Source: Prolixibacter sp. (GTDB lineage Bacteria > Bacteroidota > Bacteroidia > Bacteroidales > Prolixibacteraceae). Taken from it: a stretch of 57,473 bases of DNA. The position numbers and the translations under genes were made by a program. This document shows positions 31,665 through 51,957 of the stretch, piece by piece. Position 1 is the first letter of the stretch. Every line of letters starts with the position of its first letter. Under the pieces are notes generated by a model. The model saw only the letters and a program-made list of their open reading frames with translations, searched no databases and was not told the origin of the DNA. Location of the stretch: positions 1-57,473 of the forward strand of contig JBBIUJ010000002.1 in the NCBI GenBank assembly GCA_037440345.1. The letters run 5' to 3'.

Positions 31665-34600
31665 ATGTCAATTATTGGAAATTTATTAAAGGGTCTTTTA
31701 GGCAATAAATCAGACAGGGACATTAAGGAAGTTATGCCGGTCATTGCCCTGATTAAAGAGGAATACAGTCGCATCACAGGTTTTAGCAATGATCAGTTGC
31801 GTGCTGAAACGCTTCGGATCAAAGCGATTGTAAAAGATTACATAAAGGCAGAAGAGGATGAGATTGTTGCATTAAAGGAGCGTGCCGAGAGCGGTGAAAT
31901 TCCAATTGGAGAGGGCGAAAAATTATATGATCGTGTCGATAAACTCGAAGAGATCATCACAAAAAAAATTGAAGAGGTACTAAAGACCATACTTCCGACT
32001 GCATTTGCTATCGTGAAAGATACGGCCCGCCGCTTTTTCGAAAACGAGGAAATTGTCGTATCTGTTTCTGATTTTGATCGTGAACTTGCTGCTACAAAGG
32101 ATTTTGTAACTATTGACGGGGATAAGGCCATCTTCAAAAATAGTTGGGTTGCCGGAGGTACACTACAGACCTGGAACATGGTACACTACGATGTTCAGTT
32201 GATCGGAGGATATGTTTTGCATACTGGTAAGATATCGGAGATGGCTACCGGTGAGGGCAAAACCCTTGTGGCTACGCTTCCGGTATTCCTGAACGCGCTT
32301 GCCGGTAGGGGTGTTCACATTGTGACGGTCAACGACTACCTGGCCAAACGTGACTCTGAGTGGATGGGACCAATCTATCAGTTTCATGGTATCTCGGTAG
32401 ATTGTATAGATAAGCACCAACCCAACTCTGTTGAACGCAGGAAGGCATACAATGCTGATATTACATTTGGAACCAACAACGAATTTGGTTTTGACTACCT
32501 GCGTGACAATATGGCAACCGAGCCTGCCGATCTGGTACAGCGCAAGCACCATTATGCCATCGTGGATGAGGTCGACTCGGTATTGATCGATGATGCGCGT
32601 ACCCCTTTGATCATCTCCGGTCCGGTTCCCAAAGGTGAAAATCAACTTTTTGATGTACTGAAATCTCCCATCGAACAGTTGGTGAAAACGCAGAGGGAGT
32701 TGGTGAACCAACTTCTGGTTGAGGCCAAGAAAAAAATTAACTCAAGTAACAAGGATGAAGCCGAAGAGGGCGCCATGGCGCTTCTTCGTGCCTACAAAGG
32801 TTTACCCAAATATAAGCCAACCATCCGTTTCCTTAGTGAAGAGGGAAACAAGGCCAAGATGATGAAGACTGAGAACTTCTACATGCAGGACAATAGTAAA
32901 AATATGCACATTGTCACCGATGAGCTATATTTTATCATTGAAGAGAAACAAAATTCCGTTGAGCTTACAGATAAGGGTATTGACATTCTTTCGCACAATA
33001 ACTCGGATTCAAGCTTCTTTATCCTACCGGATGTAGGTGCAAAAATTGCTGATATACAGAATGATAAAGGTCTTTCTGATGCTGATAGAGTTGAAAAGAA
33101 GGATCTTTTGATGCAGGATTTTGCCATTAAGTCGGAAAGAATACATACAGTCAATCAGTTACTTAAGGCTTACACCATGTTCGAAAAAGACATCGAATAT
33201 GTAGTGATTGAAAACAAAGTTAAAATTGTAGACGAGCAGACAGGCCGTATTATGGAGGGTCGTCGTTATTCTGACGGATTGCACCAGGCAATTGAGGCCA
33301 AGGAAAGAGTTGTAGTGGAAGCCGCCACTCAGACCTTTGCCACCATTACCCTGCAAAATTATTTCAGGATGTACCACAAACTTGCCGGTATGACCGGTAC
33401 TGCTGAAACGGAGGCAGGTGAGTTATGGGATATATACAAATTGGAAGTAGTTGTGGTGCCCACCAATCAGCCAATCGCCAGAAAAGATTACGAAGATCTT
33501 GTTTACAAATCCAAAAATGAAAAATACAAGGCAATTATCGAAGAGATTGTCCGTCTGAACAAGATTGGACGACCGATGCTGGTAGGTACAACTTCTGTCG
33601 AAATTTCAGAATTGCTTAGCAGGATGTTGCAGATGAGGGGTATTAAGCACCAGGTCCTGAATGCCAAACTACACCAGCGCGAAGCCGATATCGTGGCCGA
33701 GGCAGGTAAATTGGGAACAGTTACCATTGCCACCAACATGGCCGGCCGTGGTACTGACATTAAATTGACTCCCGAAACCCGGGCCCTGGGCGGTCTTGCC
33801 ATCATTGGCACAGAACGGCACGACTCCCGGCGTGTCGACCGCCAGTTGCGTGGTCGTGCCGGTCGTCAGGGTGACCCCGGAACTTCCCAGTTCTTTGTCT
33901 CCCTGGAGGATGACCTGATGCGTCTGTTCTCTTCCGACCGTATTGTTGGTATCATGGACCGTCTTGGCTTAAAGGAGGGAGAGGTCATCCAGCATTCGAT
34001 GATCTCCAAATCAATCGAACGTGCCCAGAAAAAAGTAGAAGAGAACAATTTTGGAATACGTAAGCGTTTGCTGGAATACGATGATGTAATGAATTCGCAG
34101 CGTGAAGTCATATACAAGAAAAGGCGTCACGCCCTCTTTGGAGAACGGATTGAGGTAGATATTCTCAACATGATCTTCGATATGGGCGAACTGCTCAGTA
34201 CCGAGCATCAACCAAATGGTAGGGAAGGATACGAAGATTTCCGCCTCGATCTGATTAAAGCGCTGTCTCTGGATTCTCCGGTGGATGAGGAGGAATTTTC
34301 CAAGATCAATATTGACCAGCTTACGGATAAAATTTACCACAATTCGATCGAGAATTTTACCAGAAAATCGCAGGCCATCTCCCGTCAGGCCTGGCCAGTC
34401 GTTAAAAATGTTTATGAGACCAAGTCGCATATTTACAACAATATAGTTGTGCCAATTACCGATGGACACCGCCTGTTTAACATTGTTACAAACCTTGAGA
34501 AGGCATACAAAACTCAGGGGGTTGATCTGGTGAAATCCTACGAAAAACAGGTTATTCTCGCTACCATTGATGAGCATTGGAAAGAGAACCTCAGAGAACT

Positions 34601-34973
34601 GGATGAACTGAGAACCTCGGTACAGAATGCCTCTTATGAGCAAAAAGATCCGCTTCTTATCTATAAACTAGAGTCGTTTAACCTGTTTAAAGCCATGATG
34701 GAGCAAATCAACAGGGGAGTGGTTTCTACGCTAATGAAAGGACAGATTCCCATCAGTGAGGCCGACGAAGTGAAAGAAGCACCAATTGCCAGACGTTCGC
34801 AGGATCGTTCACAATACCGTGAAGAGAAGATGGAGGCATCCAATCATCCCGGAGAGCACCAGGAAGAGCACAGGGCCCCTCAGCCGATTCGGCATGCGCC
34901 AAAAGTAGGCCGCAATGAGCCTTGTCCTTGCGGAAGCGGAAAGAAATTTAAAAATTGCCACGGACACGAATAA
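31665..34973 (+). CDS. secA: Preprotein translocase ATPase SecA
   Basis: [14 protein letters not shown] Walker [30 protein letters not shown] and the C-terminal Zn finger [14 protein letters not shown]. Confidence 0.97.
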
Positions 34974-35956: not shown

Positions 35957-36516
35957 ATTGGGATTTTCTGGATTATTGGTTTGCTGGATTATTTATAGTG
36001 AAGGGATAGTATTGGGCATCTTATTTTTGGGATGCCTTAATCTTTTTATTCCGGGGCTTCCAGCGCCAAAGTTGAGGAGCATAATCTTATAAGTTAGCTC
36101 ATCGTCAATCTTTTCATTTTCCATTCGTTGTAAAAGTTATAATGATAATGTGGCAAACTCATTTTTGATGAATAAGTTACAGAATTTCAAAGACAAAAAC
36201 GAATATTGATTATGTTATTATCATGTTGACAGCCCATAAAATTTTTTCAATTACTACAATAATTAATCCAACAATCCCCAAATCCCCCGAATCCACATGC
36301 AGACAATTGGCACATAATCAACTATATAAAATACAGATGTTTAAATATGCAACACTGTATAAAATATATACACTATTTTTAATAATCTAATATACAGCAT
36401 TATACGATAAATTCGAATATTTACTGTTGAATAAATCAACACATGCTGTGTTTAAAATTCGAACAAAATTTTTTTAAATACCTCATAGACAATTAGATAC
36501 GACATAGAAATTTTCA

Positions 36517-36531
36517 TGGCACACTTATTGA
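36517..36531 (+). promoter_or_regulatory. Candidate sigma-54 (-24/-12) promoter
   Basis: TGGCAC-ACTTA-TTGA has the correct GG-to-G spacing of 12 nt. It lies about 75 nt upstream of the ATG at 36604. The -12 element reads TTGA rather than the consensus TTGC. A sigma-54-dependent activator is encoded 6.7 kb downstream. Confidence 0.5.
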
Positions 36532-36603
36532 AATAGTCTTATAGGATGTTCATTTCAATCAGGGAACAAATCAGGGATTTTATCATTACCTATAATTTCA
36601 GCC

Positions 36604-38301
36604 ATGAAAACAATTTCATTTTTCACCATTGGGTTGTCACTTTTGATCTCAAATCAAACGGCCTTTGCGGCAAGCGGGCCGGACAATCCTTCTGTATCTG
36701 CCGCGGTTCAATCGATGACAAATACAGCGAAGATCTCCAGTTCCCCCGAATTGTATAATCTGGCGCAGAATTGGGCCAAGGATTACAATGCAGCCAATCC
36801 GTCTTCCATGATCACTGTGGGACAGGCTGTTACGGGGAATACAGTGCAAGCTGAAACTTTATTTTTAGCTTCGGATGAAAATACTCCCGTGCTATCCAAT
36901 CCTTCGAATTGGAAAATGGTGGTTGGTAGGGATGTAATCGTTCCAATTATTTCTGCAAAGAATCCGATGCTCAGTCAGTTGGCTCAAGTCGGGTTATCTG
37001 CCGAAAAATTTGCCATGCTTTTTAAGGGTACTGAAATAAAGAAATGGTCAACGTATGTTCCGAATGGTCAGAATGTTCCAGTACAGATCTATTTACCCGA
37101 CAACCGGAATCTGCTGACTAGCCTGGAAGCTTTTACCAATTCCTCAATAGCCACAACCAGCGTAAAAAGCTTGAACTCTGCTGATGAGCTCATCTCCGCC
37201 GTTCAAAATGACATGTTTTCTATCGGTTTTTGTAAGCTAAGTGACTTAAAATCCTTGAATGTTTATAGTGAGGCAGAAAAGATCAGACTTCTGCCGATCG
37301 ACAAAAACGGCAATGGACGGCTGGACAATTTTGAAAATATTTATGGGAGCCTTGAGGAATTTACCCATGGGGTATGGATCGGTAAATACCCAAATGCTTT
37401 GTGTAATAATATCTATGCTGTTTCAGTAATAAAACCTACGCAAAAAAGCGAGGTGGCTTTCCTTTCCTGGATACTAAATGACGGACAGAAATTATTGAAT
37501 TCTAACGGATTTTGTGATTTGACGAGCAGTGAGAAGGAGTCAAACTTGGCCTCATTGGTGGGAGCAGGTGCTGATCATCCAAATTTAACTTCAATTGTTG
37601 CCTCTCCAAAAACCTGGCCGGTAATGCTGACAATCGCCGGGTTGGTCGGATTATTCCTGATTCTCTTTTTCTATAGCAAAGGCAGTACTGCTTCAGCCCC
37701 CATAGATCCACATATCCAACTTGCACCACTCATGGTTGAAAAGATTATGGATGTACCCAAAGGCCTCTACTTTGACAAAACCCACACATGGGCTTTCATG
37801 GAGCAGGATGGTAATGTCAGGGTTGGTATAGACGATTTTCTACAGCACATAACCGGGAAATTGACCAAAATTAAAATGAGGGAAGCAGGTGAGCAAGTGC
37901 GGAAAGGTGAAACAATCATGACGATCATTCAGGAAGGCAAGCAATTGAATATCTATGCTCCAATTTCCGGAACAATTCTGGAACAGAACGGATCTCTGCT
38001 CACAGACACCGGCATTATCAATACATCACCTTTCTTCAAAGGATGGGTCTACCAGATCGAACCTAAGAATTGGTTGAGAGAGGTTCAGTTCATGTTTATG
38101 GGGGATAAATATGCCGAGTGGCTCAAAGATGAATTTACCAGACTCAAGGATTTCATTGCCGCAACTGTCCGAACCAATAACCTGGTCTATGCACATGTTG
38201 TGCTTCAGGATGGGGGAGAATTAACCGACAACGTACTTGCTGAAATGGATCCAAAAGTTTGGGAAGATTTTCAGACACAATTCATTGATTCTTCCAGGTA
38301 A
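36604..38301 (+). CDS. Fusion protein: signal peptide + PstS-like periplasmic binding domain + one TM + GcvH-like (lipoyl-carrier fold) domain + conserved C-terminal extension
   Basis: PBP_like_2-type motifs (ISSSPELYNLAQNWAKDY...ITV, FSIGFCKLSDL). TM at aa 337-356. GcvH-like blocks KTHTWAF, VGIDDFLQ, QEGKQLNIYAPISG and SPFFKGWVYQIEP. Confidence 0.75.
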   Translation: MKTISFFTIGLSLLISNQTAFAASGPDNPSVSAAVQSMTNTAKISSSPELYNLAQNWAKDYNAANPSSMITVGQAVTGNTVQAETLFLASDENTPVLSNPSNWKMVVGRDVIVPIISAKNPMLSQLAQVGLSAEKFAMLFKGTEIKKWSTYVPNGQNVPVQIYLPDNRNLLTSLEAFTNSSIATTSVKSLNSADELISAVQNDMFSIGFCKLSDLKSLNVYSEAEKIRLLPIDKNGNGRLDNFENIYGSLEEFTHGVWIGKYPNALCNNIYAVSVIKPTQKSEVAFLSWILNDGQKLLNSNGFCDLTSSEKESNLASLVGAGADHPNLTSIVASPKTWPVMLTIAGLVGLFLILFFYSKGSTASAPIDPHIQLAPLMVEKIMDVPKGLYFDKTHTWAFMEQDGNVRVGIDDFLQHITGKLTKIKMREAGEQVRKGETIMTIIQEGKQLNIYAPISGTILEQNGSLLTDTGIINTSPFFKGWVYQIEPKNWLREVQFMFMGDKYAEWLKDEFTRLKDFIAATVRTNNLVYAHVVLQDGGELTDNVLAEMDPKVWEDFQTQFIDSSR

Positions 38302-38345: not shown

Positions 38346-39212
38346 ATGAATTTTGATCGACGTAATTTCTTTAAGACCGTTTGTGTTGCCGGCGCAACAC
38401 TCGCAGTGGGAAACAGTTTTGGAGCTTCGAAACCGGATGGAAATACCATAGAATTTCAAGGTGTCCTGTACGACTCAACCCGCTGCCTGGGCTGCCGGGC
38501 GTGCGAAAGGGTTTGTGCCAAGGCGCATGAACTCCCTGAACCTAAAGATGAACTAAAAGCCGGTGTTATTCGGAAAACCAGTGAAAAACAGCGCTCAGTG
38601 ATCAACAACTATGTCACTTCAAAGGGCGAAGTCTACATCAAAAAACAGTGCATGCATTGCAACGAGCCAGCTTGTGCAGCTGCCTGTCTTACCCAGGCCA
38701 TGTACAAAACCAAAGAGGGTCCTGTTGTCTGGAGAGGCAACAAATGCATGGGATGCCGGTTTTGCATGGTCTCTTGTCCGTTTGATGTGCCAAAATTTGA
38801 GTACCACAGCGCAAATCCAAAAATTGAAAAGTGCGATATGTGCTATGAACGAATAAAAGCAGGAAAAATCCCTGCTTGTTCCGAAGCATGTCCTGGTGAT
38901 GCCCTGACTTTCGGAACGAGAAGGGAGTTGATAGCCGAAGCCAGAAAGAGAATTTTTGAAAACCCCAAAGATTATGTAGATCAAATATGGGGAGAACAGG
39001 TTGCAGGAGGAACCGGCTGGCTCTACCTTTCATCTGCCCCTTTCAATGAAGTGGGATTCAATACCAAACTGCAAAACTCCTCATATCCCGAATTGTCCAA
39101 GGGATTTCTCTATGCCGTTCCTTCAGTATTTGTACTGTTACCCCCACTTTTGCTGGGTATCCACGAAGCCACAAAAAATAGAAACCACGCTAATGACGAA
39201 GAAAATGAATAA
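38346..39212 (+). CDS. Tat-exported 4x[4Fe-4S] ferredoxin subunit with a C-terminal TM anchor (HybA/DsrO/NrfC-like)
   Basis: RRNFFK Tat signal. Sixteen Cys in four groups: CLGCRACERVC, CMHCNEPACAAAC, CMGCRFCMVSCP and CDMC...CSEACP. Hydrophobic C-terminal helix. Confidence 0.85.
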   Translation: MNFDRRNFFKTVCVAGATLAVGNSFGASKPDGNTIEFQGVLYDSTRCLGCRACERVCAKAHELPEPKDELKAGVIRKTSEKQRSVINNYVTSKGEVYIKKQCMHCNEPACAAACLTQAMYKTKEGPVVWRGNKCMGCRFCMVSCPFDVPKFEYHSANPKIEKCDMCYERIKAGKIPACSEACPGDALTFGTRRELIAEARKRIFENPKDYVDQIWGEQVAGGTGWLYLSSAPFNEVGFNTKLQNSSYPELSKGFLYAVPSVFVLLPPLLLGIHEATKNRNHANDEENE

Positions 39213-40434
39213 GCAAGCTCAAACCATAGCGAAAGACAACGATGGGAGTTCCATCATTAAATTTATTTTGAGTGAATTGAAGCCCAAAGGTAGGATATTG
39301 ACTCCTTTCAACATCATTGCAATCCCAATCATCCTGCTTGGTATTGTGTTGATTGTTATAAGGTTCATGAACGGGATCGGATCCATTACCAACTTGTCAC
39401 AAGAGACTCCCTGGGGTTTGTGGATCGGATTTGATGTTGTGACAGGTGTTGCTTTTGCTGGCGGCGCTTATGTTCTCACTTTCATGGTCTATATCCTGAA
39501 GATGGAAAAATACCGTTCCATCGTTAGAGTCACGGTTCTGAATGGTTTTCTTGCCTATCTGTTTTATGCCGGCGCATTGCTGCTGGATCTTGGAAGGCCA
39601 TGGAATGTGGTCAATCCAATCATCGGCAACAGTTTTGGTACCAGTTCGGTCCTGTTTCTGGTGGCATGGCATTTCTTACTTTACATGATCGCCGAGCTTA
39701 TCGAGTTTTCACCTGCCATCGCCGAATGGCTGGGCACCAGAAGGGCCCGTAAAATTCTTTCAGGATTGACCATGGGCGCCGTTATTTTTGGTATCACCTT
39801 GTCTACTTTGCATCAATCAGGACTGGGGGCCCTATTTTTGATGGCCAAGGATAAAATCCATCCACTGTGGTATTCCGAATTTATCCCCATCATGTTTCTG
39901 GTATCCAGTATTTTTGCAGGATTATCGATGGTCATTTTTGAGGGTTCCATTAGTCACAAAGTATTCTTCAATCAGATCAGCGAGAAAAACCACAAGGCTC
40001 AGGGGGGGATACTTCAGGGATTGGCCAAGATCTGTGCCGGGGCCATGTTTGCCTACTTCTTTCTGCAACTGCTGGTTTTTATACACAGCAAAAATTGGGA
40101 TCTTATAAATACACCAATGGGTTATTGGTTCCTTTTCGAAATGATAGGTTTTGTCCTGGTCCCAATGCTGCTTTACCTGTATAGCTACCGTACCCGGAAT
40201 ATTCTCCTGATACGAGTGGCAGCCATCCTGACCATGTTGGGAATCATATTGAACAGGCTGAATATTTCAGTGATAGGTTTCAAATGGGATGCACCCGTTC
40301 ATTACTATCCATCGTGGATGGAAATTGTCGTCACCCTCACTGTAATTTTTACGGAGATATTAATATTCAGATGGATCATTCACCGCATGCCTGTGTTGAG
40401 GGACTCACCAGCCTGGGTGGAAGAGGAACATTAA
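39193..40434 (+). CDS. NrfD/HybB/DsrP/PsrC-family integral membrane quinone-interacting subunit
   Basis: About 10 predicted TM helices and a size of about 410 aa, positioned directly after the NrfC-like gene. The start is chosen at ATG 39193 (MTKKMNK), overlapping the upstream stop. The longer ORF from 39001 lies inside the FeS gene. Confidence 0.8.
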   Translation: MTKKMNKQAQTIAKDNDGSSIIKFILSELKPKGRILTPFNIIAIPIILLGIVLIVIRFMNGIGSITNLSQETPWGLWIGFDVVTGVAFAGGAYVLTFMVYILKMEKYRSIVRVTVLNGFLAYLFYAGALLLDLGRPWNVVNPIIGNSFGTSSVLFLVAWHFLLYMIAELIEFSPAIAEWLGTRRARKILSGLTMGAVIFGITLSTLHQSGLGALFLMAKDKIHPLWYSEFIPIMFLVSSIFAGLSMVIFEGSISHKVFFNQISEKNHKAQGGILQGLAKICAGAMFAYFFLQLLVFIHSKNWDLINTPMGYWFLFEMIGFVLVPMLLYLYSYRTRNILLIRVAAILTMLGIILNRLNISVIGFKWDAPVHYYPSWMEIVVTLTVIFTEILIFRWIIHRMPVLRDSPAWVEEEH

Positions 40435-40487: not shown

Positions 40488-41264
40488 ATGGACGGATTTA
40501 CTTACCACAACATTTTTGAAACGAAGGGGATAGAATATCTGGCAATTATCGCCTTCTTCGCCATCCTGATTCCATTCTGGATTATCCTGAACAGACAGGT
40601 AAGGATGACCAAACAACTACAAAAAAAATTAGGAATTCTGACTGCCAGTATGTTAAGGATCCCGCAAGGCATTTATTTTAGCAAAAATCACATGTGGACA
40701 CATCTCGACAGCAAAGGGATTGCCAAAGTCGGGGTGGATGATCTGTTGCTACACCTTACGGGAGAAGTAAAATTTAGCAGACTCAGGAAACCAGGAGAAA
40801 TTGTTAAAAAGGAGGATCTGCTCGCCGTGATCAATCACGATGGTAAACAATTAAAAATAGTATCACCCATTTCTGGGGAAATCATTTCGGCCAATACTGT
40901 GCTTCAGGATAATCCTGAAATACTCAATGAAGATCCTTACCAAAAAGGTTGGATGTACAAAATCAAGCCATCCAGATGGATAGCCGAAACGAGTACCTGC
41001 TATCTAGCTGAAGAAGCAACCGGTTGGTCGGTCAAGGAGTTGGAAAGATTCAAGGATTTTCTTGCTACTTCTGTGGAAAGATATACTCCGGAACCTTCCA
41101 ATATTATATTGCAAGATGGTGGTGAATTGATTGATCAGCCTCTTTCTGTACTACCAGAGGAAGTTTGGAAAGATTTCGAGCATAGCTTTCTTGGGACAAA
41201 ACCAACTTACCCACATTTCCGCGGATTGGAGAAGAGCGGTTACGAACCCGAGTATTTTCAATAG
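40488..41264 (+). CDS. Membrane-tethered GcvH-like protein (one N-terminal TM), paralog of the C-terminal half of 36604..38301
   Basis: TM at aa 17-35, followed by the basic stretch NRQVRMTKQLQKK. GcvH-like blocks KNHMWTH, VGVDDLLL, HDGKQLKIVSPISG and DPYQKGWMYKIKP. It shares the extension ...LQDGGEL...VWKDFE. Confidence 0.75.
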   Translation: MDGFTYHNIFETKGIEYLAIIAFFAILIPFWIILNRQVRMTKQLQKKLGILTASMLRIPQGIYFSKNHMWTHLDSKGIAKVGVDDLLLHLTGEVKFSRLRKPGEIVKKEDLLAVINHDGKQLKIVSPISGEIISANTVLQDNPEILNEDPYQKGWMYKIKPSRWIAETSTCYLAEEATGWSVKELERFKDFLATSVERYTPEPSNIILQDGGELIDQPLSVLPEEVWKDFEHSFLGTKPTYPHFRGLEKSGYEPEYFQ

Positions 41265-41320: not shown

Positions 41321-41356
41321 GAAGCGATGTGCATGCCACATCGCTTCATTTTTATT
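41321..41356 (+). terminator. Rho-independent terminator ending the 36604..41264 operon
   Basis: An 11-bp perfect stem GAAGCGATGTG/CACATCGCTTC with loop CATGC, followed by ATTTTTATT. Confidence 0.8.
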
Positions 41357-41565
41357 AGGCATTTATTCAATTCGCTCTTTAGAATGCAAACAAATATGCA
41401 AGAAAATTGAATATTTGAACCATTTTTTAAATTTTTGAGATTAACTTAGCATACAGTAACACCATATCTTTCAGGCACTTTAGCAACTTTTGAAAATGCA
41501 AGTACGCTGGTCACTTCCAAACAAAGGTTAATTGTCTGACGATTGAGTTAACATTCATTGCTACA

Positions 41566-43236
41566 ATGAGTTGGATACATAGAATATCGAAAGGTAACAA
41601 AGTTGGGGCCCCCATCTTAAACAGTTATGTGAAATTTCGTTCCTCCATTTATGGAAGGGTAGTTGTAATAATTACTATCTCCTCCTTTTTTCTCTTTTTG
41701 TCGTTTGGCGTTATCTTCCGCTCAGTCAATGAGAATTACATGAAGTCTGTCATTCGGGAGAGCGGGAACAACATCGGAGTCCTGGTGGAAGGCGCTTTAT
41801 ATCGGTCGATGCTGGAAAATGACAGGACTGCCTTGCAGGGTACGCTGGATATCATCAATACCATGTCGGGGATCGATGATGTAAACATGTACGACAACAA
41901 AAATAACCTGGTTTACTCCTCCATTGCAAACGATACTACCAATCACAGCGATCCTGATTGTATATCCTGTCACAAAAATTTTGCAACCATGTTCTCTTCC
42001 ACTGATAAATCCTACAAAATTATCGGGATTGACAGTGAATGCAGCATGAACCATAACAACAACAATTGCAGGCATCTGTTGATAAAATCACCGATTCGCA
42101 ATGACAAATCGTGCTATACCAGTGCCTGTCATGCTCATAGTGAAAACGACAAAGTTCTTGGTTCATTGATTATTAAGATTCCTCTTTCAGGTTTGGACGC
42201 TGCTTTGCAGAAATCCACCACCGATTATTTTTTTCTGGCTGCATTGCTTACCTTTTTGTTAATTCTCTTTTTAATATTCTTTACCCGAAAGAAAATTAAG
42301 AATCCGTTGAATGCAATTATTAAAGCAAGTTTGGCTGTTGCCGGAGGCGACAGGAGTACCAGGCTCGAAGTTAAACCCCACCAGTTATCAGATATGAGAA
42401 TGGTGTCGGTTGCTTTCAATGAGATGCTTGACAACCTGCAGACAGCCACCAATGAGTTGCAAAACTGGTCGCAACAACTCGAATATAAAGTGCAGAAGAA
42501 GTCTGAGGAGCTTGGGCAGGCACAAAATGAACTTATCAATGTCGAAAGGATCGCTTCGCTGGGCAAATTGTCACTTTCCGTAGCGCACGAAATCAACAAT
42601 CCCCTTTCCGGAATATTGATTTATGCAAAATTGGTGTACGAACAACTTGGTAACCAGGATATTGATCCGGCTAAAAAGGAATTGATGCTCAAACATCTGA
42701 AACTCATTGAAAATGAGACCAAGCGGTGTGGTGATATCGTCAAGGGGTTGCTTGATTTTTCGAGAAAAAACCAGGATGGTTTCGAGCAAAAACACCTTCA
42801 TGAAATATTGAATGAAACCTTTGAATTGATGTCACATCCGATGAAGATTGCCAATGTCCATTTCATTTCGGATTTTTCGGCCAAACCGGATCTGATCTAT
42901 TGTAGTCCTAACCAGATCAAGCAGGCCTGTATTGGGATTTTGGTCAATGCATCGGAAGCTGTTTCTGAGAACGGGGAAGTTCTCTTCAGGACGCTGAACC
43001 CGGATGCAGATCATATCCGCATTGAGATATCCGACAATGGTGTGGGAATCAATGAGGAGGATATTTCCCATATTTTTGAACCGTTCTTTTCTACCAAACA
43101 GAATGCCAGCGGTATAGGTCTTGGATTGGCAATCGTTCATGGAATCGTTCAGAACCACAAAGGAAAAGCAGATGTAAAATCAGAAAGAGGCAAGGGTACG
43201 ACAATTTCACTGACACTACCTCTTATCAGGAATTAA
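41566..43236 (+). CDS. Sensor histidine kinase with a Cys-rich periplasmic domain carrying a CxxCH heme-c motif; HAMP, HisKA and HATPase domains
   Basis: Two TM helices (aa ~31-51 and ~221-240) bracket a domain with CISCH (aa 132-136), C159/C168 and CYTSACH (aa 183-189). H-box [12 protein letters not shown]-boxes DNGVGI and GIGLGL. Confidence 0.85.
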
Positions 43237-43248
43237 TGTTTATATAGT

Positions 43249-44589
43249 ATGGCCAAAAAAATTTCAATTTTAATTGTTGACGATGAGGAATCGGTAAGGG
43301 ATTCGTTGTACAACTGGTTCATAGAAGATGGTTATTATGTCGAATGTGCCGAAAATGCAAAAAAAGCCCTCACAATTCTTCAGTCCGACAGCTTCAACAT
43401 CGTACTGGCAGACATCAAAATGCCCGGTATGGATGGCCTGGAAATGTTAAAACGCATCAAGGCCTTGAAAAGCGACGCCATTGTCATTATCATGACCGCC
43501 TTCGCTACGGTAGATACAGCAGTGCAGGCCCTAAAAGACGGTGCATATGACTATGTGACGAAGCCGTTCGATCCGGACGATCTTTCCCATTTGATCAGGA
43601 ATGCCTCCAAGCAAATATCCCTGATCGAAGAGAATGAGATTTTGAAAGACAAAGTTATTTCGCTCGAAAATGTGGAAGATATGGTGGGCCACAGCGAAGC
43701 CATGCTGGAGGTATTCAGGCAAATTGAGAGTGTAGCGCAATCCAATGCTTCCGTGATTATCACCGGCGAAAGCGGTACTGGTAAAGAGCTTGTAGCGAAA
43801 GCCATACACGCCAATTCACCGCGCAAATTCTTTCCGATGGTAAGCGTTCATTGTGGTGCATTGACTGAAAGTCTACTCGAAAGTGAACTGTTCGGACATG
43901 AAAAGGGGGCATTTACAGGTGCCGTCTACAACAGAAAAGGCCGGTTCGAAATGGCCGACAGCGGTACAATTTTTTTGGATGAAATTGCCACCATCTCTCC
44001 AAAAATGCAGGTGGAACTTTTGCGTGTGCTGGAGACGAAAAGCTTTGTCAGGGTTGGCGGAAACAAGGAGATTAGTTCCGATTTCAGGGTACTGTGTGCC
44101 ACCAACAGGGATTTAAAGGGTTTGGTTGAGAAAGGTTTGTTCCGTGAAGACCTTTTTTATCGGCTCAATGTGGTAAATATCAATATACCACCATTGCGGG
44201 AACGGGTGGAGGATATTCCTTTGCTGATCGATTATTTTATCAAGAAGTATTGCAGTTCAATGAACAGGCCCATTGTCACCATTGAACCTGCTGCGTTGCA
44301 TCGCATGGAGACATATACCTATCCCGGGAATATCCGTGAACTCGAAAATATGATCGAGCGCGCCATTGTTATTGGAAATGGAAAGAAGATCATGCTGAGG
44401 GATCTTCCACTGATGAAGGAGCGAAGCCAACCAACCTTTGAGAGCCTGGATGACCTTGGCAAAAAGCACATTCTTCAGATACTTAACAAATACAGCTGGA
44501 ACATAACAGTTTCGGCCAAGGCATTGAAACTCGACAGGGTTACACTGTACAACAAGATTAAGAAATATGGTCTGACGCCACCAAAATGA
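43249..44589 (+). CDS. Sigma-54-dependent response regulator (NtrC/AtoC family: REC + AAA+ + Fis-type HTH)
   Basis: Receiver DDEE...LADIKMPGMDG, Walker A GESGTGKE, sigma-54 contact loop GAFTGA, and a C-terminal HTH. Confidence 0.92.
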   Translation: MAKKISILIVDDEESVRDSLYNWFIEDGYYVECAENAKKALTILQSDSFNIVLADIKMPGMDGLEMLKRIKALKSDAIVIIMTAFATVDTAVQALKDGAYDYVTKPFDPDDLSHLIRNASKQISLIEENEILKDKVISLENVEDMVGHSEAMLEVFRQIESVAQSNASVIITGESGTGKELVAKAIHANSPRKFFPMVSVHCGALTESLLESELFGHEKGAFTGAVYNRKGRFEMADSGTIFLDEIATISPKMQVELLRVLETKSFVRVGGNKEISSDFRVLCATNRDLKGLVEKGLFREDLFYRLNVVNINIPPLRERVEDIPLLIDYFIKKYCSSMNRPIVTIEPAALHRMETYTYPGNIRELENMIERAIVIGNGKKIMLRDLPLMKERSQPTFESLDDLGKKHILQILNKYSWNITVSAKALKLDRVTLYNKIKKYGLTPPK

Positions 44590-44808: not shown

Positions 44809-45345
44809 ATGAAGCTGGAAAAAATCAAATTGATCTCCTTTGGATATTTTGAGAAGGGCCTTCTTGATAAAGTAGTTAAGAATGTGGAACATGAATTTCA
44901 ACTTCCTGTCAAAACAAAGGAGGGTCATCTGGATCTCAGCCTATTTTATGATCCTGCCCGACGGCAGTATGATGGATTCAGGTTACTGAAAGAGATCGAT
45001 TCCGGTTTTGCCAAAGAGACAAACAAAACCCTCGGACTTTTCAATGTTGATCTCTATATTCCCATATTAACCTACATATTTGGGCAGGCATATCTGAACG
45101 GTCGAACCGGAATCGCTTCGATCTACCGATTGAGAAACGAACGGTATGGTATCTTCAAAGACGAGAAAATACTGGTGGAACGATTTCGAAAAGAGGTCAT
45201 ACACGAGCTAGGCCATACCTTTGGATTGATCCACTGCCATGACCCTTCGTGTGTGATGCGGTCGAGCACCTATGTTGAAGACATCGATCAAAAAGAACAT
45301 CAGTTATGCCGCCATTGCAAAGAGAAACTGACCATTCACACCTGA
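44809..45345 (+). CDS. amzA: Archaemetzincin-type zinc metalloprotease (peptidase M54-like)
   Basis: HELGHTFGLIHCHDPSCVMRSS...CRHC matches the archaemetzincin signature HExxHxxGxxHCxxxxCxM plus the terminal CxxC. Confidence 0.8.
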   Translation: MKLEKIKLISFGYFEKGLLDKVVKNVEHEFQLPVKTKEGHLDLSLFYDPARRQYDGFRLLKEIDSGFAKETNKTLGLFNVDLYIPILTYIFGQAYLNGRTGIASIYRLRNERYGIFKDEKILVERFRKEVIHELGHTFGLIHCHDPSCVMRSSTYVEDIDQKEHQLCRHCKEKLTIHT

Positions 45346-45380: not shown

Positions 45381-48221
45381 TCAGGGCATCCTGCTCAATC
45401 CTTCCCATTTGACTTTCCAGCTTCCATCTTTGGGAATTCCGGGATTCTCCGTTTCACAGCCGTCGTAACCGGCACACATCATGGCTATAGCGGCCAGGAC
45501 ACCACCATTTCCAGGCAAGTATAGTCTTAACCGCTTGTCCTGGTAGTTGTGCCCATTGGCCAGGTAGGTGTTGGTAGGGATATTCATAAACAACGCATCG
45601 ATGGCCTTGTCGGGACGTCCCAAACGGGTAGCGGTCATGGCTACCAGCGGAAAATCCCAACCCCATGTCTTTTTCCAGTTCCAGTGGTCCCAGACGTAAT
45701 CGAAAGTGCTGTTCATCGTCTTTTTATTGACTACTCTCGATTCGGGCATGAAACCCAGTGCACCCAAGACAGCCGGATGGTCAGAGTGGAAAGGCAGATT
45801 GATATACGAATCAGGGGCGCTCTCTGCGGAAAGGTAAAGTCCATTCTTTTGTGCCAGAACAGCAATCTTTTCAATGATATCGTCCCACTGACGGTTGCGA
45901 TTCATTCCCAACCTGACCCGCCATTGTTGCGCAATACTCAGACCCCAGTGCCAGTAAGCCAGTTCATAGGGGGAATTGTAGGTTACCTCGGGGCTCAACG
46001 ATTCCTGAGCTGGAATGATTCCAACCAAATTGTAGCGGTTCTTATCAGGATCCCAGGAGGCAAACGAGGCCATGAAATCGGCAGTTTGAAAAACCAATTC
46101 CTTGTATTTTTCCAACATATCGTTGGTGTGGTAGTTTCGGTAACAGAGCTCCGCAAAATAGATGATATGGGGTTGCTGCCATATCAAAAATGAGCCAACC
46201 GATGAGGGGGCTTCAATCCCTGTTGTATCAGTCATTTTCATCCATCTGGCACCTTTATATCCTTGACGTTGAGCGAGTTTTTGCGCCATTGGCAATACGT
46301 CACGGTACCAACCGAGGCTCTTTTCCAGCAAATCGATGCGGTTCCAGAGGGCAAAATGGGCTGCATGCCACCAATGCATCTCCAGGTGAAATTTTCCGTA
46401 CCAACTGTTGTAGGTCAGTCCGGTTTCCTGCGGTGGCACTGTTCCTGCACACTGTATGGCCATCAGGTATTGTGAGAGGACGACCCTGCGCTCCAGTTCG
46501 GTAGCCCGTGGATCGCTGCTGCCGGCAAAATCAACGGCTCCCCCGCGATTCCAGAAGTAACTCCATTTTGCGTCATTGGCATGTGAAGTTTGATTAAAGT
46601 TTGCCAGTTGAAGAGATCTCTTCTCCTTTGAAAAGAGGCAACTGATTTCGATGCTTTGGCCTTTGGGCGATAATTCAAAATGGTGCGCCTGCTTTTCTTC
46701 CATTCTGGCAAAGCCTACCCAGTCTACTTTTGCAAAATAGGTGGTGGCATCAATCAGGCGTTCGAAAATCACCGAATTTTCGGCGACAGGGTTGGATATT
46801 GTTTTGTGTTTATCGGGACTTTTCCAGTCGCAGCCACCATCCATGTGATTCCCGGTAGGGTAGGGGAAATCAAATTTAATCTTTAGTCTTCCGGCATCTA
46901 TCAGGGGTGAGGTGATTTTGGAAGAGAGCATGTCAAGATCAGGATGGCAGATGGTGGTCACCTCTACCGGAATCCCTTCAATCTTGAAAGTGCTGTGAAT
47001 CTCTCCTTTCCAAAGGTTGAGCTCTTCCTTGAGATCAGTTAAATCAGTGATGGCGATGTCTGAACCGTCTTTCTTTTTTATCTTCAATCCGATGATTCCC
47101 AGGTGCAGGCGGTGCGCATTGGCCCTGAAATAGTTTCCGGCTTCAGCTCCTCTTTGCGGATTCTTCAACTGAACAGAATAAGACTCCGGCCTACCGTGAA
47201 AGTTGAAATCTTTCAGGCTCTCTTCGGGTTTATATCCTGAAGTATTGGGGAAACTGTGCCATCCCCACTGCGATTGGGTGCCTAGCGGTATGCCTCCCTC
47301 ATAGGTGTTTGGAAAGGTCTGTAAACCGGTAGCATCCGCCGTAAAGGCAAAATTACCATTGCCAACTGTTAGGGAAGCGAGGGTATCAACCTTCTCAATT
47401 TCGACATTGTGCCTGTTTACCAACGCCTTCCTGTCAACGTTACCACGAAAATTTGTTTTGAAAGAGACGTTCCTATTTAAATATTTTGCAAAGGGCAATT
47501 TTTGATTTTTGATCTCCTGAACAGCGAGTTCAGCAACTTTGAAAGCTCCCAACGGATTTAGGTGGGTATTGTCGGTTTTGCCGAAAGGATCCAGTTTGCT
47601 TACCCCCGGTTCGAAGATCATGTAAAGCGCTTTCGATCCTTCCACACCCATTTCGTTGATGAGCCTTTCTGTGGATGCATTAAGGTCAATGACTGGTACA
47701 TCAAGCTCTTTACCAACCTGCATGGTCACTGCCGGATATTCGCCTAATGTATTGATTGCTTTTCCATCCGCATCGAACGAACGTCTCACGATGGAGGTGA
47801 ATAAGATTGGAATTGCCCCTTTTTCGCGGCTTTCCCGAATGTATCTGACGAGGTTGTCATGATAGGTGGTATGCGAATCCGTTTTACGTGCAACATCGGG
47901 TTTTGAATCGTTGTGACCGAACTGGATAAAAACATAATCGCCTTTTTGAATCACATCCAAAACACCCTGCCACAACCCCTCATCGCGGAAACTTTTCGAA
48001 CTTCTTCCGTTTTTGGCACGATTGTCTACAACAAGTTGGTTTTCATTGAAAAACACCGGAAGTACCTGACACCATCCCCGTTCAGGATTGCTCCTTGTCG
48101 TATCCTTGTTGGCCATCGTGGAGTCACCGATGGTGTAAATTGTGACTTTCTTTTTAATAGGCGAAAATCCTGTCAAGGTTAAAATCAGCGCAATAATGAG
48201 TAGCAATCTTGTTTTTTTCAT
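45381..48221 (-). CDS. Secreted fusion: N-terminal SGNH/GDSL esterase (rhamnogalacturonan acetylesterase-like) + large C-terminal glycoside-hydrolase-like helical domain of unknown family
   Basis: SGNH blocks IGDSTMAN, NGRSS, FGHNDS and DNTHLN. The C-terminal ~650 aa is rich in Trp/aromatic helical repeats (WWHAAHFALWN, YELAYWHWG, LPGNGG). The start is set at ATG 48221 (MKKTRLLL). Confidence 0.75.
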   Translation of the reverse strand: MKKTRLLLIIALILTLTGFSPIKKKVTIYTIGDSTMANKDTTRSNPERGWCQVLPVFFNENQLVVDNRAKNGRSSKSFRDEGLWQGVLDVIQKGDYVFIQFGHNDSKPDVARKTDSHTTYHDNLVRYIRESREKGAIPILFTSIVRRSFDADGKAINTLGEYPAVTMQVGKELDVPVIDLNASTERLINEMGVEGSKALYMIFEPGVSKLDPFGKTDNTHLNPLGAFKVAELAVQEIKNQKLPFAKYLNRNVSFKTNFRGNVDRKALVNRHNVEIEKVDTLASLTVGNGNFAFTADATGLQTFPNTYEGGIPLGTQSQWGWHSFPNTSGYKPEESLKDFNFHGRPESYSVQLKNPQRGAEAGNYFRANAHRLHLGIIGLKIKKKDGSDIAITDLTDLKEELNLWKGEIHSTFKIEGIPVEVTTICHPDLDMLSSKITSPLIDAGRLKIKFDFPYPTGNHMDGGCDWKSPDKHKTISNPVAENSVIFERLIDATTYFAKVDWVGFARMEEKQAHHFELSPKGQSIEISCLFSKEKRSLQLANFNQTSHANDAKWSYFWNRGGAVDFAGSSDPRATELERRVVLSQYLMAIQCAGTVPPQETGLTYNSWYGKFHLEMHWWHAAHFALWNRIDLLEKSLGWYRDVLPMAQKLAQRQGYKGARWMKMTDTTGIEAPSSVGSFLIWQQPHIIYFAELCYRNYHTNDMLEKYKELVFQTADFMASFASWDPDKNRYNLVGIIPAQESLSPEVTYNSPYELAYWHWGLSIAQQWRVRLGMNRNRQWDDIIEKIAVLAQKNGLYLSAESAPDSYINLPFHSDHPAVLGALGFMPESRVVNKKTMNSTFDYVWDHWNWKKTWGWDFPLVAMTATRLGRPDKAIDALFMNIPTNTYLANGHNYQDKRLRLYLPGNGGVLAAIAMMCAGYDGCETENPGIPKDGSWKVKWEGLSRMP

Positions 48222-51732: not shown

Positions 51733-51957
51733 TTGTGGATAATTTGTTTTTTAATTGCCGGAGGTAATTGCGACCAGTTTTTCTCTTATAGGAAGGGGCT
51801 TATTTTGCCCCCAATGCTTAATGTAATACTCGCATGAAGCAATATTTACAATGTAAAGACAAATATAAGAGAACTCTGTTGCATAAAAAAGTAAGGTGTT
51901 ATTTTTCTTAACAAATCCTCACGCTGGCACAGATTATTCAAAAATCTAAGAATCTAT

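Follow-up and report, generated by a model that had tools for sequence, protein, structure and literature searches.

Why should the fold of a phosphate-binding protein and that of the glycine-cleavage H-protein be joined on one polypeptide by a single membrane helix? The question is raised by an open reading frame (ORF) in a stretch of 57,473 nucleotides from Prolixibacter sp. (Bacteroidales, Prolixibacteraceae; GenBank assembly GCA_037440345.1, contig JBBIUJ010000002.1, positions 1 to 57,473), which was analyzed at its full length and is referred to here as the window. The ORF lies at 36604–38301, and the fusion protein encoded by it is labelled F. An original prediction, made from the letters alone, had read it as a signal peptide, a PstS-like domain, one transmembrane (TM) helix, a GcvH-like domain and an extension, and this order of parts was borne out. 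F is a type-I single-pass membrane protein, composed as follows:

36604–38301, forward strand: F, 565 amino acids (aa), ATG start, with signal, PstS-like ectodomain, TM helix, H-protein-like domain and helical extension
36604–36669, forward strand: Sec signal peptide, aa 1–22, with AFA before and AS after the cut, read from the sequence; the hydrophobic N-terminus is kept in orthologs
36724–37563, forward strand: PstS-derived type II binding-protein fold, aa 41–320, with an apparently degenerate phosphate site, assigned from Foldseek and from identity to true PstS
37612–37674, forward strand: single TM helix, aa 337–357 (helix 338–360 in the AlphaFold model), with a K/R excess on its C-terminal side
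37753–38130, forward strand: H-protein (GCV_H) fold, aa 384–509, assigned from Pfam and the structure model; the codon of Lys446 is 37939–37941
38131–38298, forward strand: helical C-terminal extension with an invariant LQDGGEL...D...W..F, found also in the paralog GcvH2

The N-terminus, MKTISFFTIGLSLLISNQTAFA followed by AS, is a typical Sec signal. The first AlphaFold model, of full-length F with 25 orthologs, had a predicted local distance difference test score (pLDDT) of 80–90 at aa 40–320 and was poor in the cytoplasmic part (~45–50), for which it was replaced by a model of aa 376–565 built on a 113-sequence alignment (pLDDT 85, predicted template-modelling score 0.81). This second model superimposes on the E. 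coli H-protein (3ab9) with a template-modelling score of 0.90, the Pfam profile GCV_H (PF01597) matches aa 388–509 with E 9e-24 (84.2 bits vs a cut-off of 22.2), and a Foldseek search of the PDB with the full-length model found the H-protein 1onl at 5e-11, ranked after phosphate-binding proteins. The extension is modelled as a long helix, the conserved LQDGGEL...D loop and a final helix. Its presence had been foreseen, but the ~75 aa attributed to it apply only if counted from the last strand, since ~55 aa (510–565) lie beyond the H fold; it had no Pfam match (E up to 10), no sequence match in the PDB as single sequence or profile, and no Foldseek match. The topology first proposed, with the PstS-like domain in the periplasm and the GcvH-like domain in the cytoplasm, is consistent, as a prediction, with the positive-inside rule: in 76 orthologs, the 15 residues on either side of the TM helix contain on average 1.5 K+R (before it) and 3.8 (after it); for GcvH2, encoded downstream of F, the corresponding values are 1.0 and 4.7. 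Because of the signal peptide and this charge bias, the PstS-like domain is predicted to be periplasmic and the H-like domains of both proteins cytoplasmic.

An assembly or frameshift artefact fusing two genes had been raised from the outset as something that could undo the prediction. A homologue scan with one genome per species yielded 80 loci, nearly all labelled as Bacteroidales or Bacteroidota metagenome-assembled genomes (MAGs), including Prolixibacteraceae, Tangfeifania, Draconibacterium, Mariniphaga and Marinilabiliales. Over residues 1–565, F is 37–85% identical across these 80 loci, in about 75 of which it is one intact ORF. A HMMER search of 1.8 billion cluster representatives returned 344 matches to F below 1e-30; the best 150 of them are all ~540–590 aa long and align end-to-end, all of the matches listed (the best 120–150) belong to the F family, and this family comprises at least 150 clusters at 50% identity. 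The ratio of nonsynonymous to synonymous substitution rates (dN/dS) against four close relatives was 0.11–0.18 for the ectodomain, 0.03–0.06 for the cytoplasmic domain and 0.02–0.05 for the neighbouring genes. Purifying selection thus acts on every part of F (all dN/dS 0.03–0.18), and the ectodomain evolves 4–6 times faster than the neighbours; mean pairwise identity among the 76 orthologs is 0.37 for the periplasmic binding protein (PBP) domain, 0.63 for the H fold and 0.56 for the extension. A two-gene or frameshift origin was rejected on the grounds that the same single ORF of 540–590 aa recurs in independent assemblies of 80 species and in those clusters, that the linker and TM segments are kept throughout, and that no segment has escaped purifying selection; we regard the chance of such an artefact as negligible. 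F is a real, widely conserved Bacteroidales membrane protein.

The N-domain was expected to match models of periplasmic binding proteins, and it does so by structure and by profile. In Foldseek, the top 16 and most of the top 50 PDB matches of the AlphaFold model are phosphate-binding proteins (4jwo at E 4e-15, 4pqj, 4gd5, 1twy and PstS-1; PstS range E 4e-15 to 1e-10). PF12849 (PBP_like_2) reaches E 3.4e-5 and 24.2 bits on the isolated domain, under the gathering score of 27, and is precomputed on many F orthologs, and TIGR02136 (PstS family) matches aa 6–304 end to end, if weakly (E 2e-4, 20.7 bits vs a cut-off of 206.6). A direct comparison was offered by locus L080, a distant PBP-only match with a textbook pstS-pstC-pstA-pstB operon, whose PstS (157–1137) is 28% identical to aa 44–318 of F by BLASTP (E 7e-34). 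The two proteins have the same two-lobed fold and the motifs NP...W, DxNxNGxxDxxE, G.YP and WILNDGQK in common.

An oxyanion-like ligand had also been proposed for this domain, together with an inspection of its pocket residues, and here the comparison gave the opposite result, as the anion-contacting loops of PstS are gone. The second anion loop, SAGGAGKG, is deleted (5-residue gap), the SR motif has become SD or variable residues, and the TRSDACGA loop, of the R...SGT type, is replaced by L/P-D/N-D/N-E (D/N166, D/N167, E168), that is, by variable or acidic residues. A working binder of phosphate, phosphite, sulfate or thiosulfate, delivering or reporting the oxyanion, would have in its favour the PstS fold and the first S/T-S/T-P loop, which is retained in part; against it stand these losses and the gene context, given that no ABC (ATP-binding cassette) transporter genes are found in the window or in 79 loci, whereas the true PstS of L080 is accompanied by pstCAB. 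With the anion-binding elements gone and no such genes nearby, an oxyanion binder is unsupported, and we consider it very unlikely. Judged from its sequence, the ectodomain is a decayed PstS that appears to have lost the phosphate site, and R109, C210, W258 and K261 are newly conserved in it. One inherited element stands out:

37300–37335, forward strand: EF-hand-like loop DKNGNGRLDNFE, aa 233–244, with positions 1, 3, 5, 6, 9 and 12 invariant or nearly so

The Ca-ligating positions 1, 3, 5, 9 and 12 and Gly6 of this loop are accounted for by D233, N235 and E244 (each 76/76), N237 (74/76), D241 (69/76) and G238 (72/76). Since the true Bacteroidales PstS of L080 carries DMNANGKIDEQE where F has DKNGNGRLDNFE, the loop is inherited and not new, and the PstS lineage with the DxNxNGxxDxxE loop may be Ca-dependent.

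The other half of the fusion had been described as a carrier-protein fold, which holds for the fold and probably not for the function. Gap-free, high-confidence HMMER alignments to the T. thermophilus and E. coli H-proteins place the lipoyl-lysine (K65 in E. coli, counting Met1) at Gly445 of F, so that Lys446 sits at the hairpin but at +1 from the lipoylation position (ESVK-A). True carriers, lipoylated or otherwise acylated on Lys446 and passing on reducing equivalents or a group on the cytoplasmic side of the membrane, would have their nearest comparisons in LbpA of the sHdr systems and in the biotinyl domain of membrane decarboxylases; they would be in keeping with the close structural match to the H-protein and with a lysine that is invariant in 76/76 F orthologs. 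The register is the first argument against them, as Wallis and Perham reportedly found for the E2p lipoyl domain that moving the target lysine by one residue abolishes lipoylation. Furthermore, the corresponding lysine is dispensable in the paralog GcvH2, where 12 of 56 distinct hairpin sequences have I, N or R in its place, the NCBIfam equivalog scores of F for GcvH are below their cut-offs (TIGR00527 67.8 vs 115.85 bits; NF002270 85 vs 117), and no gcvT, gcvP, lpd, lplA, lipB or sHdr genes recur in the 80 loci or are found among the window neighbours. A carrier role therefore seems unlikely to us, and the H-like domain of F is probably not a lipoyl carrier as far as its residues and gene context can tell.

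F is the first of seven genes, of which the following six lie downstream:

38346–39212, forward strand: HmcB/HybA-like ferredoxin (PF13247; HybA below), with a twin-arginine translocation (Tat) signal DRRNFFK, four [4Fe-4S] motifs and a C-terminal TM anchor
39205–40434, forward strand: HmcC/HybB-like NrfD-family membrane subunit (PF03916; HybB below), 409 aa, its start overlapping the HybA-like stop by 8 nt
40488–41264, forward strand: GcvH2 paralog (PF01597, E 3e-23), 258 aa, with a 16-aa N-terminal tail, TM helix, H-like domain and extension
41566–43236, forward strand: sensor histidine kinase with periplasmic haem-c motifs, then HAMP, HisKA and HATPase
43249–44589, forward strand: sigma-54-dependent response regulator with REC, AAA+ and HTH_8
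44809–45345, forward strand: M54 archaemetzincin-like peptidase (PF07998, E 4e-24), 178 aa, directly after the regulator

Three canonical cluster motifs of the FeS protein were found by pattern search and the fourth, CDMC...CSEAC, was read from the sequence. Both members of the FeS/NrfD pair score below the equivalog cut-offs, the former with 312 vs 420 bits for HmcB (NF045715) and 218 vs 263 for HybA, the latter with 410 vs 550 bits for HmcC (NF045714) and 255 vs 450 for HybB. The TTG start at 39001 (477 aa) given for the NrfD-like gene in the ORF list is an artefact; the real start, conserved in ortholog alignments, is the ATG at 39205. GcvH2 is 35% identical to the C-terminal 190 aa of F (aa 376–565), which means that the TM-anchored module of H-like domain and extension is duplicated, and its predicted periplasmic tail MDGFTYHNIFETKGIEY (aa 1–16, 40488–40535) is among the most conserved stretches of the protein, which suggests that it may make a specific contact at the outer membrane face.

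The periplasmic domain of the kinase has an invariant CxxCH (aa 132–136) and Cx4CH (aa 183–189) besides the conserved C159 and C168-x-H170. The pairing of CxxCH and Cx4CH occurs in cytochrome c3. No Pfam match (E up to 10) and no PDB match were obtained for this domain, nor any significant similarity to the tetrahaem cytochrome of related loci (see below), and its motifs suggest a haem-c redox sensor domain of an undescribed kind. The best named matches include ZraR and AtoC for the regulator and AtoS and ZraS for the kinase. All other genes of the window have housekeeping roles (among them SecA, Lgt, ferritin, isocitrate dehydrogenase, RF3 and RF-1/2-type release factors); SecA (31665–34973) is of the long Bacteroidota type (1102 aa, PRK12901 1818 bits) with a large DEAD-domain insertion. 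No Rfam families were found anywhere in the window.

The promoter region of F and the end of GcvH2 contain the following elements:

36338–36354, forward strand: putative enhancer (upstream activating sequence) site 1, 17-bp palindrome TGTTTAAATATGCAACA of the form TGTT-N9-AACA
36425–36441, forward strand: putative enhancer site 2, TGTTGAATAAATCAACA, same form, with perfect 6-bp arms
36449–36465, forward strand: putative enhancer site 3, TGTTTAAAATTCGAACA, same form
36517–36531, forward strand: sigma-54 type −24/−12 promoter TGGCACacttaTTGA, 87 bp before the ATG of F and invariant in close relatives
41321–41357, forward strand: intrinsic-terminator-like hairpin with an 11-bp stem and a T run, ending the predicted sigma-54 unit after GcvH2

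With the promoter and palindromes before F and the terminator after GcvH2, a sigma-54 unit F-HybA-HybB-GcvH2 is predicted, and the three genes for kinase, regulator and peptidase seem to be a unit of their own. Three of the four matches to TGTT-N9-AACA in the 57-kb window fall within 128 bp upstream of F, and the palindrome columns are invariant in aligned relatives. Among 75 loci, the palindrome density is 3.53/kb in the 400 bp before F vs 0.025/kb elsewhere, a ~140-fold enrichment, and TGGCA[CT]-N5-[TC]TG[AC] precedes F in 49/75, at a distance of 36–110 bp in 48 of them and at −181 in the remaining one. Enhancer palindromes together with a −24/−12 element are, in sequence terms, the standard layout of a promoter served by a bacterial enhancer-binding protein, and the adjacent regulator is the obvious candidate for binding the palindromes.

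The intergenic region that holds these elements (35957–36603) is 647 bp, unusually long and AT-rich; it begins with a terminator-like hairpin for lgt (36014–36037) and contains a second, poorer TGGCAC element at about 36308. The fourth palindrome match is isolated at 51897–51913, as is a TGGCAC-N5-CTGC match at 46434–46448, on the opposite strand in a GDSL-lipase ORF, and both are probably chance. A search of the 80 loci for a further regulon member with palindrome and promoter gave one match, inside a dxs gene, which was likewise judged to be chance.

A link of F to the FeS/NrfD pair had been suspected from the window and is real at the level of gene order, as seen from the arrangements in relatives:

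F-HybA-HybB-GcvH2-kinase-regulator-M54: 47 loci (full type)
F directly followed by kinase-regulator-M54: 8 loci, HybA, HybB and GcvH2 all absent within 10 kb (short type)
F-GcvH2-kinase-regulator-M54: 1 locus
F-HybA-HybB-GcvH2: 4 loci, with no kinase or regulator within 10 kb

The first three arrangements (47 + 8 + 1) are the 56 loci that reach the kinase and have it in one cluster with F, and the full order is kept in 47 of them, down to 37% identity of F. According to these counts F is the constant element and always comes first. The M54 gene follows the regulator in 44/47 full-type and 8/8 short-type loci, abutting or overlapping it in several, and the palindromes persist in two of the four loci that are devoid of an adjacent two-component system. 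When 1,664 ORFs of the loci were clustered all against all, no further recurrent partner emerged. In the long-read MAGs L073, L079 and L026 (the kinase in the last), F, the HybA/HybB genes or the kinase are fragmented by apparent frameshifts, most likely assembly errors rather than pseudogenes. The labels 'Chloroflexota' and 'Omnitrophica' (L067, P0379) look like mis-binning, given that synteny is the same or identity high.

A periplasmic catalytic or cytochrome partner is absent from the window and present in some relatives. In L026, a Tat-signal periplasmic [FeFe]-hydrogenase (its large- and small-subunit domains fused, PF02906 + PF02256; 11735–13198) lies between F and the kinase and replaces HybAB-GcvH2, and a tetrahaem cytochrome c of ~178 aa (PF13435) is encoded directly upstream of F in four loci:

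Tetrahaem cytochrome c: L026, 8711–9250; L028, 2154–2690; L041, 8759–9292; L062, 5643–6176

By their gene content, these contexts would link the unit to H2 metabolism or to electron transfer in the periplasm, which fits an HmcBC/HybAB-like pair and a haem-c sensor. A weak signal of co-evolution was obtained from partial correlations of pairwise distances in 43 loci, with the mean of the other domains controlled. One block comprises HybA, HybB, the GcvH2 tail and TM helix and the periplasmic domain of the kinase (r 0.27–0.57), within which the partial r of the tail and TM helix with HybA and HybB is 0.46 and 0.57; the other comprises both H-like domains, the regulator, the kinase core and M54 (r 0.31–0.50). 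The blocks fit, weakly, a docking of GcvH2 on the FeS/NrfD pair via its tail and TM helix, with the H-like domains siding with cytoplasmic partners.

The reading that we favour, tentatively and at somewhat less than an even chance, is that a quinone-linked electron-transfer module facing the periplasm has F and GcvH2 as single-pass accessory subunits without a catalytic role; in it, F would contribute a docking or sensing ectodomain, and the H-like surface may feed back on the kinase or regulator. The kinase would sense the periplasmic redox state via its c-type haems, whereupon the regulator would bind the TGTT-N9-AACA sites and the sigma-54 unit would be switched on. The FeS/NrfD pair would then pass electrons between periplasmic carriers (cytochrome c, hydrogenase) and menaquinone, with F and GcvH2 as accessory subunits in a position comparable to that of the small TM subunits of the Hmc/Nhc complexes. 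GcvH2 would use its conserved N-terminal tail and TM helix to dock on the pair, a fast-evolving ectodomain for docking or ligand sensing would come from F, and both would display a highly conserved H-like surface in the cytoplasm, serving protein-protein contact and not a lipoyl swinging arm, a surface that might also feed back on the kinase or regulator.

Several points weigh against this reading. We infer the association of F and GcvH2 with the FeS/NrfD pair from synteny and the weak co-evolution signal, and such a mirror-tree signal may reflect compartment-specific rates only. The hydrogenase and cytochrome contexts rest on 1 and 4 of ~75 loci, respectively, and NrfD subunits of this kind are cofactor-less, leaving no obvious redox role for a cytoplasmic H-like domain beside them. 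The eight short loci, with F and the kinase/regulator and no HybA, HybB or GcvH2 within 10 kb, mean that F is not strictly dependent on these three in cis.

The short loci at the same time speak for the main rival explanation, namely that F is mainly a third part of the two-component system, a sigma-54-induced, membrane-tethered co-sensor or feedback modulator whose ectodomain touches the haem domain of the kinase or binds the signal and whose H-like domain touches the kinase core or the AAA+ regulator. The FeS/NrfD pair would then be optional, co-regulated cargo, with a logic like that of ZraP-ZraSR or TorT-TorS; the named matches of the regulator (ZraR, AtoC) and of the kinase (AtoS, ZraS) would agree with this. 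F is the sole constant across the arrangements, the short loci consist of F with kinase, regulator and M54 only, 7/8 of them have a sigma-54 promoter before F, and the cytoplasmic domain of F is just as conserved in loci that do not have HybAB; as a weak indication, this domain correlates with the regulator, kinase core and M54 (partial r 0.31–0.45) and not with HybB (−0.44). On the other side, F-HybA-HybB-GcvH2 is retained in four loci where neither kinase nor regulator lies within 10 kb, F belongs to a predicted unit with HybAB-GcvH2 and is separated from the kinase by the terminator, an H-protein fold as signalling output is without precedent, and a contact of F with the kinase or regulator is hypothetical. 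A co-sensor is possible in our view but doubtful.

A further explanation, which we hold to be about as doubtful as the co-sensor, is that the module of TM helix, H-like domain and LQDGGEL-extension is an unrecognised cytoplasmic coupling or output domain, through which F would relay a periplasmic event (for instance a docking cytochrome or hydrogenase, or a Ca-dependent ligand) to the N-side channel of the NrfD subunit or to the sigma-54 regulator or kinase. If true, this would define a new class of proteins, bitopic receptors or accessory subunits that serve the respiratory NrfD complexes of anaerobic Bacteroidales, and a coupling or signalling role of the H-like module would be a new function for one of the oldest carrier folds.

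The architecture was not recognised as a described one in the original prediction, and a full-text literature search found no paper describing it, although the automatic annotation at the Joint Genome Institute (JGI) already names both halves. Elsewhere the F family is labelled 'glycine cleavage system H protein', 'phosphate ABC substrate-binding protein' or 'hypothetical', so that the present database names of F-family proteins call for caution. Each fold and the NrfD/FeS pair are of known kinds; what appears to be undescribed is their combination, a duplicated membrane-tethered H-like module, fused once to a decayed PstS, under a haem-kinase/sigma-54 circuit. A central part in anaerobic respiration is played by NrfD/FeS modules (Hmc, Nhc, Hyb, Qrc, Dsr, ACIII), and their small accessory subunits and regulation are poorly understood. 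The F family adds a seven-gene unit that is compact and self-regulated and has drawn two unexpected folds to the membrane, a phosphate-binding-protein fold that looks unable to bind phosphate and an H-protein fold that looks non-lipoylatable, and it would give a handle on periplasmic redox or H2 sensing in uncultured sediment and freshwater Bacteroidales.

Set against the systems from which its parts are known, F differs from each of them in a particular way. Unlike in PstS, all three phosphate-contacting loops are deleted or replaced, and the ectodomain is tethered by a TM helix to a cytoplasmic domain instead of being partnered with an ABC transporter. With GcvH (PF01597; 3ab9, 1onl), the H-like domain has in common the barrel-sandwich fold, 28–32% identity and the motifs H.W, G.DD.Q, P.SG..N and GW; unlike GcvH, it is membrane-anchored, carries the 55-aa helical extension, has its lysine at +1, stays below the equivalog cut-offs and has no T, P or L proteins or lipoate ligase encoded nearby. 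The H-protein fold has been recruited outside glycine cleavage before, in GcvH-L of Streptococcus pyogenes (5a35, matched by the F model at E 1e-5) and in LbpA of sHdr sulfur oxidation. Both of these are soluble and lipoylated at the canonical lysine, and their gene context consists of sirtuin/macrodomain or sHdr genes, none of which accompany F.

The NrfD modules of the Hmc, Nhc and Hyb type (HmcBC, NhcBC, HybAB) consist of a Tat-exported 4x[4Fe-4S] protein and a cofactor-less, quinone-interacting NrfD subunit (PMC8076601), and flanking single-pass subunits with PstS-like or H-like domains are reported for no NrfD complex in that review. The FeS/NrfD pair of the window is alike in its Tat-exported 4x[4Fe-4S] protein with a C-terminal anchor and in the NrfD-family partner encoded together with it, and in NCBIfam it matches HmcB and HmcC best, followed by HybA and HybB, all scores lying below the equivalog cut-offs. 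In some relatives of the F locus, a multihaem cytochrome c or periplasmic hydrogenase adjoins; the operon of the window is without a catalytic or cytochrome subunit.

On the regulatory side, the compared systems are ZraP-ZraSR, with an induced envelope accessory protein, the co-sensor systems TorT-TorS and LuxP-LuxQ, and the H2-responsive HoxJ-HoxA and HupT-HupR. As in co-sensors of the TorT/LuxP type, a binding-protein gene stands beside a kinase gene; these, however, are soluble periplasmic proteins with an intact pocket, whereas F is membrane-tethered and its ancestral pocket is degenerate. Sigma-54 two-component systems resemble the locus in having a kinase and an NtrC-family regulator beside a sigma-54 promoter with upstream palindromes, the target encoding an envelope protein with a binding-protein fold. 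What sets the present locus apart from systems of the ZraP, TorT and LuxP type is that F spans the membrane and ends in an H-like domain, and that the sensor domain of the kinase has c-type haem motifs.

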